Below are positions 3,497 through 34,788 of a stretch of DNA of 46,811 nt, piece after piece; positions within the stretch are counted from its first letter, which is position 1, and each line of letters starts with the position of its first letter. A program made the translations under genes and the position numbers. The stretch is taken from NCBI GenBank assembly GCA_047626255.1, contig JBLHRT010000001.1:1-46811 (forward strand), given 5' to 3'. Origin of the DNA: Candidatus Azotimanducaceae bacterium. GTDB taxonomy: Bacteria; Pseudomonadota; Gammaproteobacteria; Pseudomonadales; Azotimanducaceae. Under the pieces are notes generated by a model. That model had not been told where the DNA came from. It searched no databases and saw only the letters and a program-made list of their open reading frames with translations.

Positions 3497-4909
3497 ATGG
3501 CAGAAGACAAAGGCACGGGTAAAAAACTCTGGGACGGCAGGTTCACGGAAGCAACGGACGCCTTCGTCGAAGAATTTACTGCCTCGGTAGATTTCGACCA
3601 AATCATGGCACAGCAAGACATACGAGGCTCCGTGGCCCATGCGACCATGCTCTGCCACGTGGGTGTGCTGGGCGAGCATGAGCTCGCGGCGATCAAAGAG
3701 GGGCTCGAGGCCATCAGGCTGGATATCGAACAAGGCAAGTTCGCCTGGTCTGTAAGCCTCGAAGACGTGCATATGAATATCGAGGCGGCGCTCACAGAGC
3801 GCATCGGCAGTGTCGGTAAAAAATTACATACAGGTCGCTCCAGAAATGACCAGGTTGCCACGGATATACGTCTGTATCTGCGCGATCAGATTGATGTGAT
3901 CAGTCAATTACTGAGAAAGCTCCAGCGTGGCATTTTGTCTCTGGCAGAGCAACATGTTGCCACGGTCATGCCTGGCTTCACGCATCTGCAAGTTGCCCAG
4001 CCCATTACTTTCGGCCATCACTTGATGGCGTGGTATGCCATGACAGAGCGGGATTACGACCGACTGCAGGATTGTCGTCGACGCGTCAATATCCTGCCCC
4101 TAGGCGCTGCTGCCCTCGCAGGCACCAGCTACCCCATCGATCGTCATATGACGGCGCGGCTACTGGGCTTTGACAGCATTAGTGGTAATTCACTGGATGC
4201 GGTCAGCGACCGTGACTTTGCGATTGAATTTAGCGCCTGCGCCAGCATTCTGATGATGCACCTGTCACGCTGGTCTGAAGAAATTGTCCTCTGGGCGTCG
4301 CCGCAATTTGGTTTTGTGGACCTTCCAGATCGCTTCTGCACGGGATCGTCCATCATGCCGCAGAAGAAGAATCCAGATGTACCAGAACTCGTGCGAGGTA
4401 AAACTGGCCGGGTTTACGGCAGCCTAACTACCCTGCTAACTCTGATGAAAGGTCAGCCCTTGGCCTATAACAAGGACAACCAAGAGGACAAAGAGCCCTT
4501 GTTCGATACGGTGAAAACCGTCGTCGGCTGTGTCATGGCGTTTGCCGACATGATTCCGGCCATGGTTGCTCAACCTGAGAATATGCGCGCCGCCGCCATG
4601 CGTGGCTACGCGACCGCCACTGATCTCGCGGACTATCTGGTTAAGAAAGGTCTGCCGTTTCGTGACGCACATGACGTGGTAGGCAAGTTGGTGGGGGTCG
4701 CTATTAGCGAATCTGTGGACCTGGCAGAGCTGTCTTTATCTGCCCTGCAAGCCGAATCGGGGCTGATTACCGCTGACGTATTTGACGTATTAACCCTCGA
4801 CGGCAGCGTCAATGCCCGCAATCACCCGGGTGGCACAGCCCCCGCTCAGGTTACCGCCGCCATCGCCGCCGCCCGAACTCGTCTGGACAACGTGGAAAAA
4901 GCGTCTTAA
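3497..4909 (+). CDS. argH: argininosuccinate lyase
   Basis: KLWDGRFTE..., [13 protein letters not shown] and [12 protein letters not shown] are fumarate-lyase/ArgH signatures. The ATG at 3497 has AAAGGGG 7 nt upstream. The ORF-track start at 3491 is a TTG. Confidence 0.95.
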
Positions 4910-20445: not shown

Positions 20446-21138
20446 ATGGTGATTGTACCCGAACCGACTAATAATTCGCCGCGCGTAGATCTGGGGAACA
20501 TCGAATTCCTCAAAAGTGCCGCCAATCTATCTCATTGCCCTGATGATACGGGACTGGAGGTTGCTTTCTGCGGTCGCTCAAACGCAGGTAAATCCAGCGC
20601 TATTAACTACCTAACCGGACAGAACAAGTTAGCGAGGACCAGCAAGACGCCAGGTCGAACGCAATTGATCAACTTTTTTACAGTCTCGGATGAATTTCGG
20701 CTGGTAGACCTGCCCGGCTACGGCTATGCCAAGGTACCCACGAGAATGAAACGGGACTGGCACGAGAACATCGACAACTATCTACGCAATCGCCTGTCAC
20801 TCACGGGGCTGGTTTTGTTGATGGATATTCGCCATCCACTCAAAGCTTTTGATCACACAATGATCAATTGGAGCGCCCAGGCTCAAATGCCACTGCATAT
20901 CCTGCTCACGAAATGCGACAAGCTTAAGCGTGGCGCACAGCAAGCGACGTTGCTCAAGGTTAAGCGAGAATTAGCCGACCAGAAGTCGACGACCATCCAG
21001 TTATTCTCTTCGACCCATGAAATGGGTCAGAAGCTACTGCTAAAACAGCTCTCTGACTGGGTCAATCAAGGACATCGGGGCGATTTAGTATCTCGCCAAG
21101 ATGCGAGCCTATCGGCAGTTATTCCGTCTGCCGATTGA
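20446..21138 (+). CDS. engB: ribosome-biogenesis GTPase EngB/YihA
   Basis: GRSNAGKSS (G1), DLPGYGYA (G3) and TKCDK (G4) are present. Confidence 0.9.
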   Translation: MVIVPEPTNNSPRVDLGNIEFLKSAANLSHCPDDTGLEVAFCGRSNAGKSSAINYLTGQNKLARTSKTPGRTQLINFFTVSDEFRLVDLPGYGYAKVPTRMKRDWHENIDNYLRNRLSLTGLVLLMDIRHPLKAFDHTMINWSAQAQMPLHILLTKCDKLKRGAQQATLLKVKRELADQKSTTIQLFSSTHEMGQKLLLKQLSDWVNQGHRGDLVSRQDASLSAVIPSAD

Positions 21139-21201
21139 CGCTCGACCCGGCGCATGAAAATCTGACAGACCGTTGAGTGCCGAGCTGACCAAATCGCTGA
21201 C

Positions 21202-21242
21202 AAAAAAAAGCCCTGATCACCTTCGGGGAGGATGTGATCAGG
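21202..21242 (-). terminator. intrinsic terminator on the minus strand
   Basis: The minus strand reads cctgatcac-atcctccccgaag-gtgatcagg-GC-TTTTTTTT. That is a 9-bp perfect stem (21212-21220 / 21234-21242) followed by 8 U (21202-21209). No T-run follows it on the plus strand. Confidence 0.7.
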
Positions 21243-21483
21243 ACTTGGGGTCTTCGGTGCTTTAGGGGAAGAAAATCACCGACGTTCTACTACTCTTGAC
21301 GATTTATTGCCTACTATCGCTCACTGCTTAAGTTCATTGGGGGGAACCTTGAACTAAAGACCTTTTTCTAACCTTCGTTTTTGCTATCGTCTTTGTACTC
21401 GCTTGCTAAACGTTCACTTGTTATTACTCGATCTTTCCTCTCACCTGACTATCAACCCGACACCAAATTGTTGGGGGGACAAT
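21202..21483 (-). ncRNA. candidate structured RNA: four hairpins with a shared C-rich (minus) / G-rich (plus) loop motif. The strand and 5' end are not established.
   Basis: The hand-folded hairpins H1-H4 are described in the findings. The minus strand is favoured only because H1 is a canonical terminator in that orientation. It occupies the same slot and orientation relative to polA as spf in E. coli. Confidence 0.3.
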
Positions 21484-21484
21484 C

Positions 21485-21649
21485 ATGCTGCCAGATTCAC
21501 TGTCAGGTTCGAGTCTAGATCTTGTAGCTAGTCGCTACATGGCTCTTCGCTACATGGCTCTTCGCTACATGAATAATAAGACCAGTCCTTGCAGACAAAG
21601 TTCAACAAAACTGCAATTTGTTTTTTTGATCGACTCATTTTGTCACTGA
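21485..21649 (+). CDS. hypothetical 54-aa small ORF (below the ORF-track cutoff)
   Basis: The ATG at 21485 is preceded by GGGGGGA with a 5-nt spacer. The translation is MLPDSLSGSSLDLVASRYMALRYMALRYMNNKTSPCRQSSTKLQFVFLIDSFCH. There is no known homology and it may be fortuitous. Confidence 0.2.
   Translation: MLPDSLSGSSLDLVASRYMALRYMALRYMNNKTSPCRQSSTKLQFVFLIDSFCH
21533..21571. repeat. 15-nt tandem repeat cgctacatggctctt x2.6
   Basis: Read directly. Units are at 21533-21547 and 21548-21562, with a partial unit at 21563-21571. Confidence 0.9.
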
Positions 21650-21674
21650 ACAACTCTGAGGCTCATGAGACAGA

Positions 21675-24365
21675 CTAATGTGCCGCCTCCCAATCCTGAC
21701 CGACACCGGTCTCGACCAACAGCGGTACTTTGAGCTGCGCCGCACCCGTCATCTTTTCATTGAGTATGCGCGTCACCTCCTCCACCTGATCGTCCCTAAC
21801 CTCCAGCACCAGCTCATCGTGAACCTGCATAATCATCAGCGCATCAGGCTGGGCGTCTTGCAACCATTGGTCAACAGAGATCATGGCTAACTTGATAATG
21901 TCCGCCGCAGAACCCTGCATAGGCGCATTGATCGCCGTTCGCTCTGCCGCCTGTCGCCGCTGGAAGTTACTGGTATTGATTTCTGGCAAGTACAGGCGTC
22001 GACCAAACAAGGTCTCGACAAAGCCCTGCTCAGCTGCCAAGGCTCGCGTTTTATCCATGTACTCACGTACGCCCGGGTAGCGCTCAAAATACATGTCGAT
22101 ATAGCTTTGGGCGGCGCCACGACCGATATTCAGCTGGCGCCCCAGACCGAAGGCAGACATACCGTAAATCAGACCGAAATTAATCGCCTTGGCACTACGA
22201 CGCTGATCCACGGTCACGTCGTCAAGTTCACACCCAAAGACCTCCGCTGCGGTAGCTTTATGAATATCCAAACCCTGTGAAAATGCCGACAAAAGACCGG
22301 CGTCAGACGATAAGTGGGCCATAATACGCAGCTCTATCTGCGAGTAATCTGCGGCAACCAGCTTATACCCTGACGGTGCAATGAAGGCTTTCCTGACCCG
22401 TCGTCCTTCCTCCGTGCGAATCGGTATATTCTGCAGGTTCGGGTCACTACTCGACAACCTACCCGTTGCTGCCACTGCTTGGTGATACGATGTATGAACC
22501 CGACCGGTGGCCGCACTGATCTGCTTGGGCAACTGATCTGTGTAAGTAGACTTGAGTTTTGATAACCCACGATACTCCGTGATGACTTTCGGCAAAGGGT
22601 AATCTAAAGCGAGCTCCTGGAGCACATCTTCCGCCGTTGATGGCTGTCCTTTCGGCGTCTTCTTCTTGACCGGTAGTGCCAGCTTCTCAAACAAAATAAC
22701 TTGTAGCTGCCGCGGTGAGCCCAGGTTAAATGTCTCACCCGCTAACTCAAAAGCTTCTTGTTGCAGCTCGGCAAGGCGTTCGCCAAGTTGTGCGCTTTGA
22801 GTTTGCAATAGTTCGCGGTCTAGCAGCACGCCGTTGCGCTCGATCCGTGACAAGACGGTGACTAGCGGTAGCTCGATCGACTCAAAGACGTGTTGCAGGG
22901 ACGGGCTTTCTGCCAGCTTTGGCCACAACGCCTGATGTAGTTGCAAAGTGATATCAGCATCCTCAGCAGCATACTGGCCGGCGACATCAAGCGGTACCTG
23001 GTCAAATGTGATCTGCTTGGCTCCCTTGCCCGCTACGTCTTCAAAGTGAGTGGTCTGCTTGCCAAGATATTTCAGCGCAAGATCGTCCATGTTGTGGCGC
23101 GACGCTACCGAATTCAATACGTAAGATTCGAGCATCGTATCGAAGGCAACACCTCGCAAGGTGATGCCGTGCCTAGCCAAAACGCTCATGTCATATTTTA
23201 AGTTTTGCCCTACCTTTTTCTTGTTGGGATCTTCCAACAGAGCTCGAAGTCGGCCCATAACAGTATCCACCGACAGCTGTTCGGGTGCGCCAATATAGGC
23301 ATGCGCCATCGGCACATAAGCGGCTTCACCAGCAGTGACGCTGAACGACACGCCCACCAGATCAGCCGCCATATAATCGAGACTGGTGGTTTCGGTATCG
23401 AACGCGAACAAGTCTGCCGCCTGCAACATATCGACCCAGCGTTCTAGCTCAGGCAGTGTCGTTATCAACTCGTAAGTAACAGCAACCTGTTCCGGCCTGA
23501 CTTCATCATCGGCGCTGTGCAACTCTTCAAGCCACTGGCGAAATTCGTATTCCGTATATAACGCTCGCAAGGCGACGTTATCCGGGGTCGTCATTTCAAG
23601 CCCTTCCGGCCCCACATCAAGCTGCACGTCTAATTTGATCGTTGCTAATTCATAGGACATCGGTAACGTTTCTAGCGCGTCGCGCAAGTACTCTCCCACT
23701 TTGCCCTTAACCTCGTCTGCGTGCTCAATGACCCCCTTAAAACTGCCGTATGCGTCTAGCCATTTGACGGCGGTTTTTGGCCCACATTTTGGCACCCCAG
23801 GGATATTGTCAGATGTATCGCCAACCAAAGCGAGATAATCGATTATCTGGTCAGGTCTAACACCAAATTTGTCGATCACCCCCTCGGGGTCCATCACCAT
23901 TTCATTCATGGTATTTACCAGCGTGATATGCTCATTGACGAGTTGCGCCATATCTTTGTCGCCAGTTGAAATCAATACATCTAACTCTTGCTCAGTGGCG
24001 CGCGCAGCGAGGGTCCCGATAACATCATCGGCCTCTACACCCTCAACAATCAGCAAAGGCACACCCATGTGTTTAATAATTTCGTGGATGGGAGCTATCT
24101 GTTCCCTAAGCTCATCTGGCATGGCGGCACGGTTAGCTTTATATTCTGGATAAATATCATTTCGAAATGATTTCCCCTTAGCATCAAAAACGACAGCGAT
24201 ATGACTCTCAGGATTGTCGTTGATTAATTTTTTGATCATGCTGATAACGCCTTTCATGGCGCCGGTATGTGCACCCTTGGTGCTCATCAACTTCGGTAGT
24301 GCATGAAACGCGCGAAAAAGGTAGGATGAACCGTCTATTAAGACCAGCGGATATTTGTCTTTCAT
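21675..24365 (-). CDS. polA: DNA polymerase I
   Basis: It is 896 aa with a 5'-nuclease, a 3'-5' exonuclease and polymerase motifs (DYSQIELR, QVHDELV). Confidence 0.97.
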   Translation of the reverse strand: MKDKYPLVLIDGSSYLFRAFHALPKLMSTKGAHTGAMKGVISMIKKLINDNPESHIAVVFDAKGKSFRNDIYPEYKANRAAMPDELREQIAPIHEIIKHMGVPLLIVEGVEADDVIGTLAARATEQELDVLISTGDKDMAQLVNEHITLVNTMNEMVMDPEGVIDKFGVRPDQIIDYLALVGDTSDNIPGVPKCGPKTAVKWLDAYGSFKGVIEHADEVKGKVGEYLRDALETLPMSYELATIKLDVQLDVGPEGLEMTTPDNVALRALYTEYEFRQWLEELHSADDEVRPEQVAVTYELITTLPELERWVDMLQAADLFAFDTETTSLDYMAADLVGVSFSVTAGEAAYVPMAHAYIGAPEQLSVDTVMGRLRALLEDPNKKKVGQNLKYDMSVLARHGITLRGVAFDTMLESYVLNSVASRHNMDDLALKYLGKQTTHFEDVAGKGAKQITFDQVPLDVAGQYAAEDADITLQLHQALWPKLAESPSLQHVFESIELPLVTVLSRIERNGVLLDRELLQTQSAQLGERLAELQQEAFELAGETFNLGSPRQLQVILFEKLALPVKKKTPKGQPSTAEDVLQELALDYPLPKVITEYRGLSKLKSTYTDQLPKQISAATGRVHTSYHQAVAATGRLSSSDPNLQNIPIRTEEGRRVRKAFIAPSGYKLVAADYSQIELRIMAHLSSDAGLLSAFSQGLDIHKATAAEVFGCELDDVTVDQRRSAKAINFGLIYGMSAFGLGRQLNIGRGAAQSYIDMYFERYPGVREYMDKTRALAAEQGFVETLFGRRLYLPEINTSNFQRRQAAERTAINAPMQGSAADIIKLAMISVDQWLQDAQPDALMIMQVHDELVLEVRDDQVEEVTRILNEKMTGAAQLKVPLLVETGVGQDWEAAH

Positions 24366-34089: not shown

Positions 34090-34788
34090 TTGCAGCTAAC
34101 GTTGTACTATATCGCCATCATGGACACATCCAACATTCGCCAAGTAATCACCGAAACCCTCCTGCTGTTTGACCCTGTCAACGGCGCGGCGGCTATGACG
34201 ATACGGCTGACAAAAATCAGCAAACCATTTGGCTTACCTGACAATGCCCACAATCGGGAACAGATTTTTGGCATGCTGCTCGACTATATCCAAAGCGTGC
34301 CTGGCCAACTTGCAGGGCTGCATGTTGTTGGCGAGCGATATCACATTATCGATCTGCTACAACCCTTTATCGATCTATCAACCAATTATCTCGCTGCCAC
34401 CTGTCGCAGCCTAGAGGTCTCGCCACAACACATGCCTGACGAGCCGCTAGATACCAGTCCGTTAATGGCATTATTGCAAGGCGCCTACATCTTTAATCGC
34501 CTACTCGAGGAGCTCAACGATGAAATCCAGAATTTTATTGGCATTCCGTTAACGGGGGCCAACACCATGACAGCCAACCTTATTGTCCACGATGTGATCG
34601 GCGATAGTTTCGCTAACCGCCTCGACAAAATCATTGATGCCTTGATCGCCCGATCAGCGATCACCAAATCCATCATTGAGGCGGAACTCGCCAGCGCCCA
34701 AGTCATGTCTTTGAAGAAAGAAAGCTGCGCCCTCAGTGGCGAGAAAATTGAGGACCTAGCGGGGCGTCACAATCTCACTCTATTTTAG
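34090..34788 (+). CDS. hypothetical protein with no family recognised
   Basis: It is a 232-codon open frame with no competing frame. The start is uncertain: either the TTG at 34090, with GGGG about 6 nt upstream, or the ATG at 34120. I see no TM segments or signal peptide. Confidence 0.55.
   Translation: MQLTLYYIAIMDTSNIRQVITETLLLFDPVNGAAAMTIRLTKISKPFGLPDNAHNREQIFGMLLDYIQSVPGQLAGLHVVGERYHIIDLLQPFIDLSTNYLAATCRSLEVSPQHMPDEPLDTSPLMALLQGAYIFNRLLEELNDEIQNFIGIPLTGANTMTANLIVHDVIGDSFANRLDKIIDALIARSAITKSIIEAELASAQVMSLKKESCALSGEKIEDLAGRHNLTLF

Follow-up and report, generated by a model that had tools for sequence, protein, structure and literature searches.

We analysed a 46,811-nucleotide (nt) stretch of DNA from Candidatus Azotimanducaceae bacterium (contig JBLHRT010000001.1, positions 1 to 46,811; hereafter the window), focusing on the spacer between engB and polA, whose minus strand carries a putative small RNA (sRNA) gene that appears to be related to ersA of Pseudomonas. 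The flanking genes were assigned with Pfam as EngB (an MMR_HSR1 GTPase) and PolA (DNA polymerase I), with the engB stop at 21138 and the polA stop at 21675. The wider gene order, dsbA, cytochrome c4, engB, then polA and an APH-type kinase, was also confirmed, and we take it to be the order found around ersA of P. aeruginosa (PA5489-PA5495). The original prediction, made from the sequence alone, held that the spacer contains no open reading frame (ORF) of 60 amino acids (aa) or more, and indeed the longest one within 21139-21674 has 54 aa.

The spacer contains four hairpins, all of which were found at the predicted positions both in the sequence and by an inverted-repeat scan. H1 has a 9-bp stem at 21212-21220/21234-21242, H2 a stem at 21254-21259/21277-21282, H3 a 10-bp stem with one mismatch at 21327-21336/21350-21359 (inverted repeat I6) and H4 a stem at 21467-21471/21479-21483. 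The loop motif that the hairpins were said to share was also borne out: CCCC occurs 9 times in the 376-nt stretch that holds them, compared to approximately 0.9 expected, and 2 of the window's 7 CCCCCC runs (46.8 kb, both strands) fall within it. Five separate runs of at least four C are present, four of them in the hairpin loops and one in the linker between H2 and H1. When folded, the minus strand of the 376-nt stretch reached -108.7 kcal/mol (z = -4.03), a stability equalled by none of 100 shuffled sequences, and all four hairpins were present in this fold; the core defined below, folded by itself, gave z = -3.21. Both the four hairpins and their common C-rich loop motif are genuine and well beyond what chance would give.

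Related loci were collected using EngB as the query, and 80 genome loci and 80 metagenome loci, numbered here with the prefix L, were retained; no Pseudomonas locus is among the 80 genome loci. The closest named genome by EngB is a metagenome-assembled genome of Candidatus Azotimanducaceae (order Pseudomonadales), and the convergent arrangement of engB and polA was seen in 50 of the 80 genome loci. Searches with the spacer (BLAST and nhmmer) revealed broad conservation limited to window positions 21194-21297, and every one of the approximately 50 nhmmer matches lay just downstream of engB. These matches yielded 36 distinct sequences, which make up the alignment used here (A2) and from which the covariance model R1 was built. 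H1 and H2 are thus the hairpins conserved in dozens of relatives. Among the contigs with an identical EngB, six have an identical spacer and two shorter ones end within it. Samples in which the exact sequence is present include JGI 3300061478, 3300045790, 3300053770 and 3300061220.

The conserved core occupies 21297-21200 of the minus strand and consists of an A/G-rich stretch, stem-loop 1 (SL1, which is H2), SL2 (which is H1) and a tract of eight U. The A/G-rich stretch (AAGAGUAGUAGAA, 21285-21297) lies directly 5' of SL1, is unpaired in the folds and contains three almost invariant alignment columns (G8, A10 and A11). SL1 (21252-21284) has the stem CGUCGGUG/CACCGAAG and a loop with UUCCCCUAAAG; its CUUCGG/CCGAAG stem is 93.7% paired across the 36 distinct sequences. 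The linker between SL1 and SL2 (21246-21251), which differs across family members, carries the fifth C run (ACCCCA, with the C run at 21250-21247). SL2 (21210-21245, loop AUCCUCCCCGAAG) is well supported by comparison, with compensatory double changes at 10 of its 11 pairs, 96.8% of its cells paired compared to 28-47% with slid partners, and a covariation that was reached by 0 of 500 shuffles. A paired fraction of 98.7% was also obtained for this hairpin. The U8 tract (21202-21209) was read directly in the sequence, is conserved in the alignment and places the predicted 3' end of the RNA near 21203-21200. The claim that H1 is an intrinsic terminator on the minus strand was upheld by the U8 tract and the covarying stem, and comparison strongly supports SL2 plus U8 as the predicted Rho-independent terminator. 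Note that a consensus terminator scan missed H1, its loop being beyond the 8-nt limit of the scan. Regarding the remaining stems, for which covariation had been proposed as a check, H2 is conserved and hardly covaries, H3 gave no such support and H4 is supported only in the closest clade. The C-rich loops, which the original prediction had singled out, proved to be the most conserved single-stranded parts: the SL1 loop and the SL2 loop each have a CCCC core with a conservation of at least 90%, whereas the stem of SL2 changes, and conserved loops beside a varying stem have the appearance of a functional single-stranded sequence.

That the RNA is encoded by the minus strand, in the orientation of polA, is settled. 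Directly after H1 the minus strand reads GC followed by eight U (the A-run 21202-21209 of the plus strand), and on this strand the H1 stem grows to 11-12 bp through the G-U pair 21243/21211. In support of this, the closing pair of H1 is G-U in 13 of the aligned sequences; this fixes the strand because the plus strand would read a C-A mismatch there. The stability of the minus-strand fold and the promoter described next agree with this orientation, as originally proposed.

What the original prediction overlooked is a promoter motif that ties its four hairpins into one predicted transcript. This sigmaE/AlgU-type motif (21577-21603, minus strand) has its -35 element, GAACTT, at 21603-21598 and, after 16 nt, its -10 element, TCTTA, at 21581-21577 (GAACTT-TGTCTGCAAGGACTGG-TCTTA), and would start transcription near 21571-21569. 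The pattern GAACTT-N16-TCTNA has a single match on both strands of the 46.8-kb window, compared to 0.07 in shuffled sequences, and the window motif agrees with the AlgU consensus GAACTTN16-17TCtgA (PMC3819740). Its position, approximately 70 nt beyond the polA stop, matches that in the relatives, where the motif (G)GAACTT-N16-(G)TCTGA/TCTTA was found on the sRNA strand of L001, L002, L004-L012, L020 and L022. Every close relative with readable upstream sequence has a motif of this type, and so do 10 of the 11 distant R1 matches checked in the same slot; the other, L141, had no match to the search pattern. One locus, L006, was left out because its expected sRNA stretch is masked: approximately 100 nt at the expected core position (4211-4309) read as N, with a good sigmaE-type motif upstream at 4442. 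Comparison thus strongly supports a sigmaE/AlgU-type promoter as the element that would drive the core. The -10 element is 26-27 nt away from the core in L011, L012, L020 and L022 (giving an RNA of approximately 125 nt, like the 132-nt ErsA), 43-167 nt in the other relatives and 279 nt in the window. The interval between promoter and H1 is free of U runs of four nt or longer and of further promoter-like sites. A second GAACTT, in the 3' arm of H3 (21335-21330), was considered as a proximal promoter and rejected: the corresponding -10 reads TAGGC, and a 16-nt deletion in L081 destroys the spacing.

ErsA is regarded as a Pseudomonas-specific virulence and biofilm sRNA, which acts through Hfq-dependent repression of algC and oprD and activation of amrZ, and to our knowledge Rfam's ErsA model does not go beyond the genus Pseudomonas. 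At the gathering threshold no Rfam family matched anywhere in the window or in 19 relatives. Below that threshold, RF01719 (Pseudomon-1/ErsA) aligned end to end, at model positions 1-116, with 21303-21194 of the minus strand (33.5 bits, E = 9.6e-5). In this alignment H2 is the model's first hairpin and H1 its terminator, and the SL2 loop AUCCUCCCCGAAG, with its CCUCCCC motif, aligns with CCCUCCCCAUA of RF01719, where the terminator-loop consensus is CCCUCCCC. RF01719 also matched the orthologous element over its full length in 10 of the 11 relatives scanned (30.6-48.4 bits), where it was the top family and the only one to match the element across relatives. The scores form a gradient, from 48.4 in L027 (Endozoicomonas) through 38.4 in L020, 37.4 in L012 and 35.5 in L007 to 33.0 in L081. 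From the full-length alignment and the matches in relatives, the RNA of the window reads as a divergent ErsA homologue missed by Rfam's gathering threshold and not as a new class, so that the suggestion of a possibly different RNA in a conserved slot had to be dropped, while that of an sRNA gene in the slot that houses ErsA in Pseudomonas held, by location and by alignment.

The likeness extends beyond the score. ErsA likewise occupies the engB-polA slot, co-oriented with polA, likewise has a sigmaE/AlgU-type promoter motif and likewise consists of a two-hairpin body whose terminator loop contains CCCUCCCC. It differs in the sequence of SL1, in its length (132 nt, compared to a predicted ~370 nt for the window, where the promoter is ~280 nt from the core) and in having neither the two additional C-rich-loop hairpins nor the 15-nt tandem repeats of the window. 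The stretch 5' of SL1 is A/G-rich in the window (AAGAGUAGUAGAAC) and the leader upstream of it could not be aligned with the 5' part of the model, whereas ErsA-like 5' sequence (GUUUAGUGUUGGCA) is kept in the more distant L020 and L027. ErsA of P. aeruginosa depends on sigma22/AlgU and Hfq (PMC5819304, PMC7264166).

Other RNAs named in the original prediction, or sharing its C-rich loops, were also compared. Spot 42 (spf) is found in the polA-engB slot of Enterobacteriaceae and Vibrionaceae, is CRP-cAMP-repressed and uses U-rich single-stranded seeds; we know of no C-rich loops in it. The Pseudomonas RNA of this slot was initially listed as 'putative Spot42' (PMC3349714). Membership of the window RNA in this family is rejected, there being no RF00021 match in 21100-21720 even at E <=10. 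In the same interval and at the same limit, CsrB/Rsm and RsaE had no Rfam match either, so that among the families suggested for searching only ErsA responded. The C-rich-loop design, for which no gammaproteobacterial family had been recognised, is already known from sX13 of Xanthomonas, which is encoded at the polA locus (PMC3771888). As in the window, the sX13 gene of Xanthomonadaceae lies downstream of polA and its RNA has several stem-loops with apical CCCC; it differs in being 115 nt long, in having three loops and in being Hfq-independent. It represses mRNAs with GGGG motifs near the start codon, for which its C-rich loops are experimentally required (PMC3771888). Homology with sX13 is not established, since the RF02232 match in the window is weak (18.3 bits, E = 0.43, gathering score 50) and no match at E <=1 was seen in the relatives scanned. 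RsaE/RoxS of Firmicutes and the alpha-r7/CcsR 'cuckoo' RNAs of Alphaproteobacteria likewise have several hairpins whose C-rich loops pair with G-rich ribosome-binding sites, and alpha-r7 RNAs have also been reported beside polA (PMC3771888). Since these RNAs show no sequence or Rfam similarity and belong to other taxa and other regulators, the likeness would be one of functional analogy only.

The sRNA gene was found well beyond the closest relatives. R1 matched L027 (Endozoicomonas) at 42 bits and, more weakly, elements that share its slot and strand in Granulosicoccaceae, Agarilytica, Berkiella and others. Comparison across genomes shows that this putative gene is independent and comes with a stress-type promoter and an intrinsic terminator of its own, because some genomes have the unit as a tandem duplicate and others have it inverted as a whole.

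The arrangements themselves are varied. Many related genomes have two tandem ErsA-like copies, with a separate sigmaE-type promoter and terminator for each, at 4157-4249 and 4452-4546 in L008, 4159-4254 and 4453-4548 in L009, and 4190-4283 and 4480-4575 in L010; L094 and L096-L105 also have them, and Endozoicomonas L027 likewise has two. In L007 (4183-4308), L020 (4172-4296) and L022 (4193-4316), all on the plus strand, the unit of promoter, sRNA and terminator is inverted as a block, so that it runs in the direction of engB and towards polA. The sRNAs of L011 and L012 closely resemble the inverted ones yet keep the usual orientation. In Halieaceae and relatives (L013-L026, L032 and L036) the sRNA gene is absent from the engB-polA slot, because the gap measures only 3-11 nt; in L015 and L052 the two genes overlap by 4 nt.

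With a single promoter, a single terminator and no U run between them, the minus strand of the window would give a primary transcript of approximately 370 nt (21200-21571, running from ~21570 to ~21203) that includes all four C-rich loops. It would contain, in this order, three 15-nt repeats, a long hairpin tipped by H4, H3 and then the core. The repeats (CAUGUAGCGAAGAGC on the RNA strand; direct-repeat family D1, 21527-21571) lie at the predicted 5' end. Each unit has an AUG-UAG start-stop pair after a purine-rich GAAGAG, which is probably coincidental and is not conserved in L001. The H4 hairpin (21438-21513) is irregular, approximately 76 nt long and present in both the minimum free energy and the centroid folds, with the loop UCCCCCCA at 21472-21478. 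The same fold was predicted for the corresponding stretches of L001 and L083 (EngB 89% identical); across window, L001 and L083 the loop is kept and one pair changes from C-G to U-G to U-A, and the leader around H4 has diverged. H3 (21327-21359, loop GGUUCCCCCCAAU) is also part of the minus-strand fold. The idea that H3 and H4 derive from the core by duplication and decay was rejected, since R1 with its filters off gave 2.7 bits for H3 and 0.6 bits for H4, neither significant.

Some further observations concern the leader. Its expansion through tandem repeats was seen in L002/L088, L003/L089 and L005/L092 as well as in the window, and the repeats in L002, L003 and L005 copy the A/G-rich flank of SL1 (e.g. 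GGTAGTAAAGCTTTT). Near-identical loci differ in repeat copy number, with 84 nt in L002 compared to 99 nt in L088, and 167 nt in L005 compared to 124 nt in L092. L167, a metagenome contig with an identical EngB, ends in the 15-nt repeat array at approximately window position 21561, which could be an assembly break caused by heterogeneity of repeat number in the population. In L081 (EngB 99% identical), 16 nt immediately before the core (window 21298-21313) are missing, and there are several substitutions in the loops and stems of SL1 and SL2, one of which turns a U-G pair of the terminator stem into U-A. Read on the plus strand, H3 precedes ACCUUUUUCU (21327-21368) and could serve as a weak engB terminator; its stem is AT-rich, and conservation of the hairpin does not go further than L081.

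Could the region be explained without an sRNA gene on the minus strand? It might be the 3' untranslated region of polA plus its terminator, with or without a terminator for engB, and since the stretch from the polA stop (21675) to H1 contains no strong terminator, polA read-through probably does end at H1. We consider this very unlikely as the whole explanation, because the promoter is independent and conserved, the conservation of the loops exceeds what a terminator needs, the unit is duplicated, and also inverted relative to polA, in relatives, and Halieaceae get by with a spacer of ~10 nt. The original prediction also noted that the plus strand displays GGA in its loops, the format bound by CsrA/RsmA. 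A plus-strand RNA whose GGA/GGGGA loops sequester CsrA or RsmA, like CsrB, RsmY and RsmZ, would account for these loops and for CCUUUUUCU after H3, but neither a plus-strand promoter nor a GacA box was found and no Csr/Rsm family matched at E <=10. In addition, the conserved promoter and the U tract lie on the opposite strand, the G-U pairs turn into C-A mismatches, H3 is not conserved, the block is inverted in L007, L020 and L022, and the plus strand folds no better than its shuffles (z = -1.53), all of which makes this idea extremely improbable. We give virtually no credence to the 54-aa ORF on the plus strand (21485-21649) as a small protein gene with the G-rich complement of the H4 loop as its Shine-Dalgarno sequence: the ATG at 21485 does have GGGGGGA 5 nt before it, but the product has no Pfam match, the ORF spans the 15-nt repeats and the promoter of the opposite strand, and its frame is broken in the L001 alignment by indels of 19, 2 and 1 nt. 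The ORF is probably spurious.

A more serious question is how much of the transcript matters. Possibly only the ~100-nt core (H2 and H1) is functional, and the 280-nt leader is neutral or processed off, having arisen by slippage of repeats or as the remnant of an upstream tandem copy that decayed, and leaving the H3 and H4 loops as functionless leftovers. Short forms of ~125 nt are the norm, with leaders of only 26-27 nt in the four loci named above; leaders are hypervariable and rich in repeats; the two tandem copies with their own promoters in many relatives make a fused or decayed copy plausible; and H3 and H4 do resemble SL1, if faintly (2.7 and 0.6 bits). We hold this to be a real possibility, and still a doubtful one, given that the H4 hairpin and loop are kept, with a covarying pair, between window, L001 and L083 while their flanks diverged, that C runs are strongly enriched and that no second promoter is detectable near the core. 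By comparison across relatives the hairpins are not equivalent: H1 and H2 are the ancient core, H4 is a clade-specific and H3 a species-level addition, so the extra C-loops are young and their function is uncertain.

The explanation we favour, with a probability of roughly 0.78, is that the minus-strand gene between engB and polA specifies a trans-acting sRNA, a divergent orthologue of ErsA, with a conserved core, a sigmaE/AlgU-type promoter, a transcript of ~370 nt and loop-mediated repression, the last two being inferred. RpoE/AlgU would induce this RNA on envelope stress. Its loops, UCCCC and CCUCCCC, mimic the 16S anti-Shine-Dalgarno sequence CCUCC and would pair with G-rich ribosome-binding regions, thus blocking translation of the target mRNAs; H4 and H3 would supply further copies of the loop seed, and Hfq would probably be bound at the U tail. 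The likely mechanism would be that envelope stress induces a repressor of mRNAs whose ribosome-binding sites are G-rich. For such action of C-rich loops sX13, which is also encoded downstream of polA, provides the precedent (PMC3771888).

Several observations count against this explanation. The 33.5-bit match of the window is below the RF01719 gathering score of 50. The experimentally defined seed of P. aeruginosa ErsA is a U-rich unstructured region, nt 26-56 of the 132-nt RNA, and not the loops (PMC5819304); by alignment this region does not appear to be conserved in the window, which also argues against a simple transfer of ErsA function from Pseudomonas. The SL1 stem is nearly invariant and its covariation almost nil, so it fits pairing and carries little information. 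The start and length of the ~370-nt primary transcript with H4, H3, H2 and H1 are only predicted, and the transcript may be processed. H3 is identical in L081 and absent from L001 and L083, and relatives have other 12-15-nt tandem repeats at the same leader position, and in most relatives the leader lacks C-rich hairpins; because of this the extra loops may be dispensable. Finally, none of 852 pairings of the four loops with start sites in the window, evaluated with RNAduplex, was convincing, the best (-16.8 kcal/mol) being with an ORF at 34090-34788 that has no Pfam family.

A bolder extension is that ErsA has been expanded in this lineage, the gap between the fixed promoter and the core acting as a growth zone in which 12-15-nt repeats and new hairpins produced a multivalent four-loop anti-Shine-Dalgarno RNA, and that ErsA, the window family and sX13 (possibly also alpha-r7) share an ancient polA-linked envelope-stress ancestor with C-rich loops, its seed being the loops and not the U-rich region studied in P. 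aeruginosa. We regard this as speculative and, taken as a whole, rather unlikely.

What is new here is the reach of the ErsA-like family outside Pseudomonas, and the predicted 370-nt, four-loop architecture of the window lineage. The same gene is spread over many uncultured marine Pseudomonadales and their neighbours, including Azotimanducaceae, Endozoicomonas, Agarilytica and Granulosicoccaceae, and the slot, the sigmaE-type promoter and the terminator loop are all retained in these ErsA-like genes outside Pseudomonas. By its sequence, the window RNA would belong to a broad ErsA-like superfamily outside the reach of Rfam's current threshold, and the A2 alignment and R1 model could enlarge Rfam's ErsA family. 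The family displays tandem gene duplication, block inversion and leader expansion via short tandem repeats, and no version seen is longer than that of the window, which adds two seed-like loops. The most conserved parts of the family are the C-rich loops and not the U-rich seed studied so far. Loop pairing with G-rich ribosome-binding sites may thus be the ancestral mode, and this would tie ErsA mechanistically to sX13.

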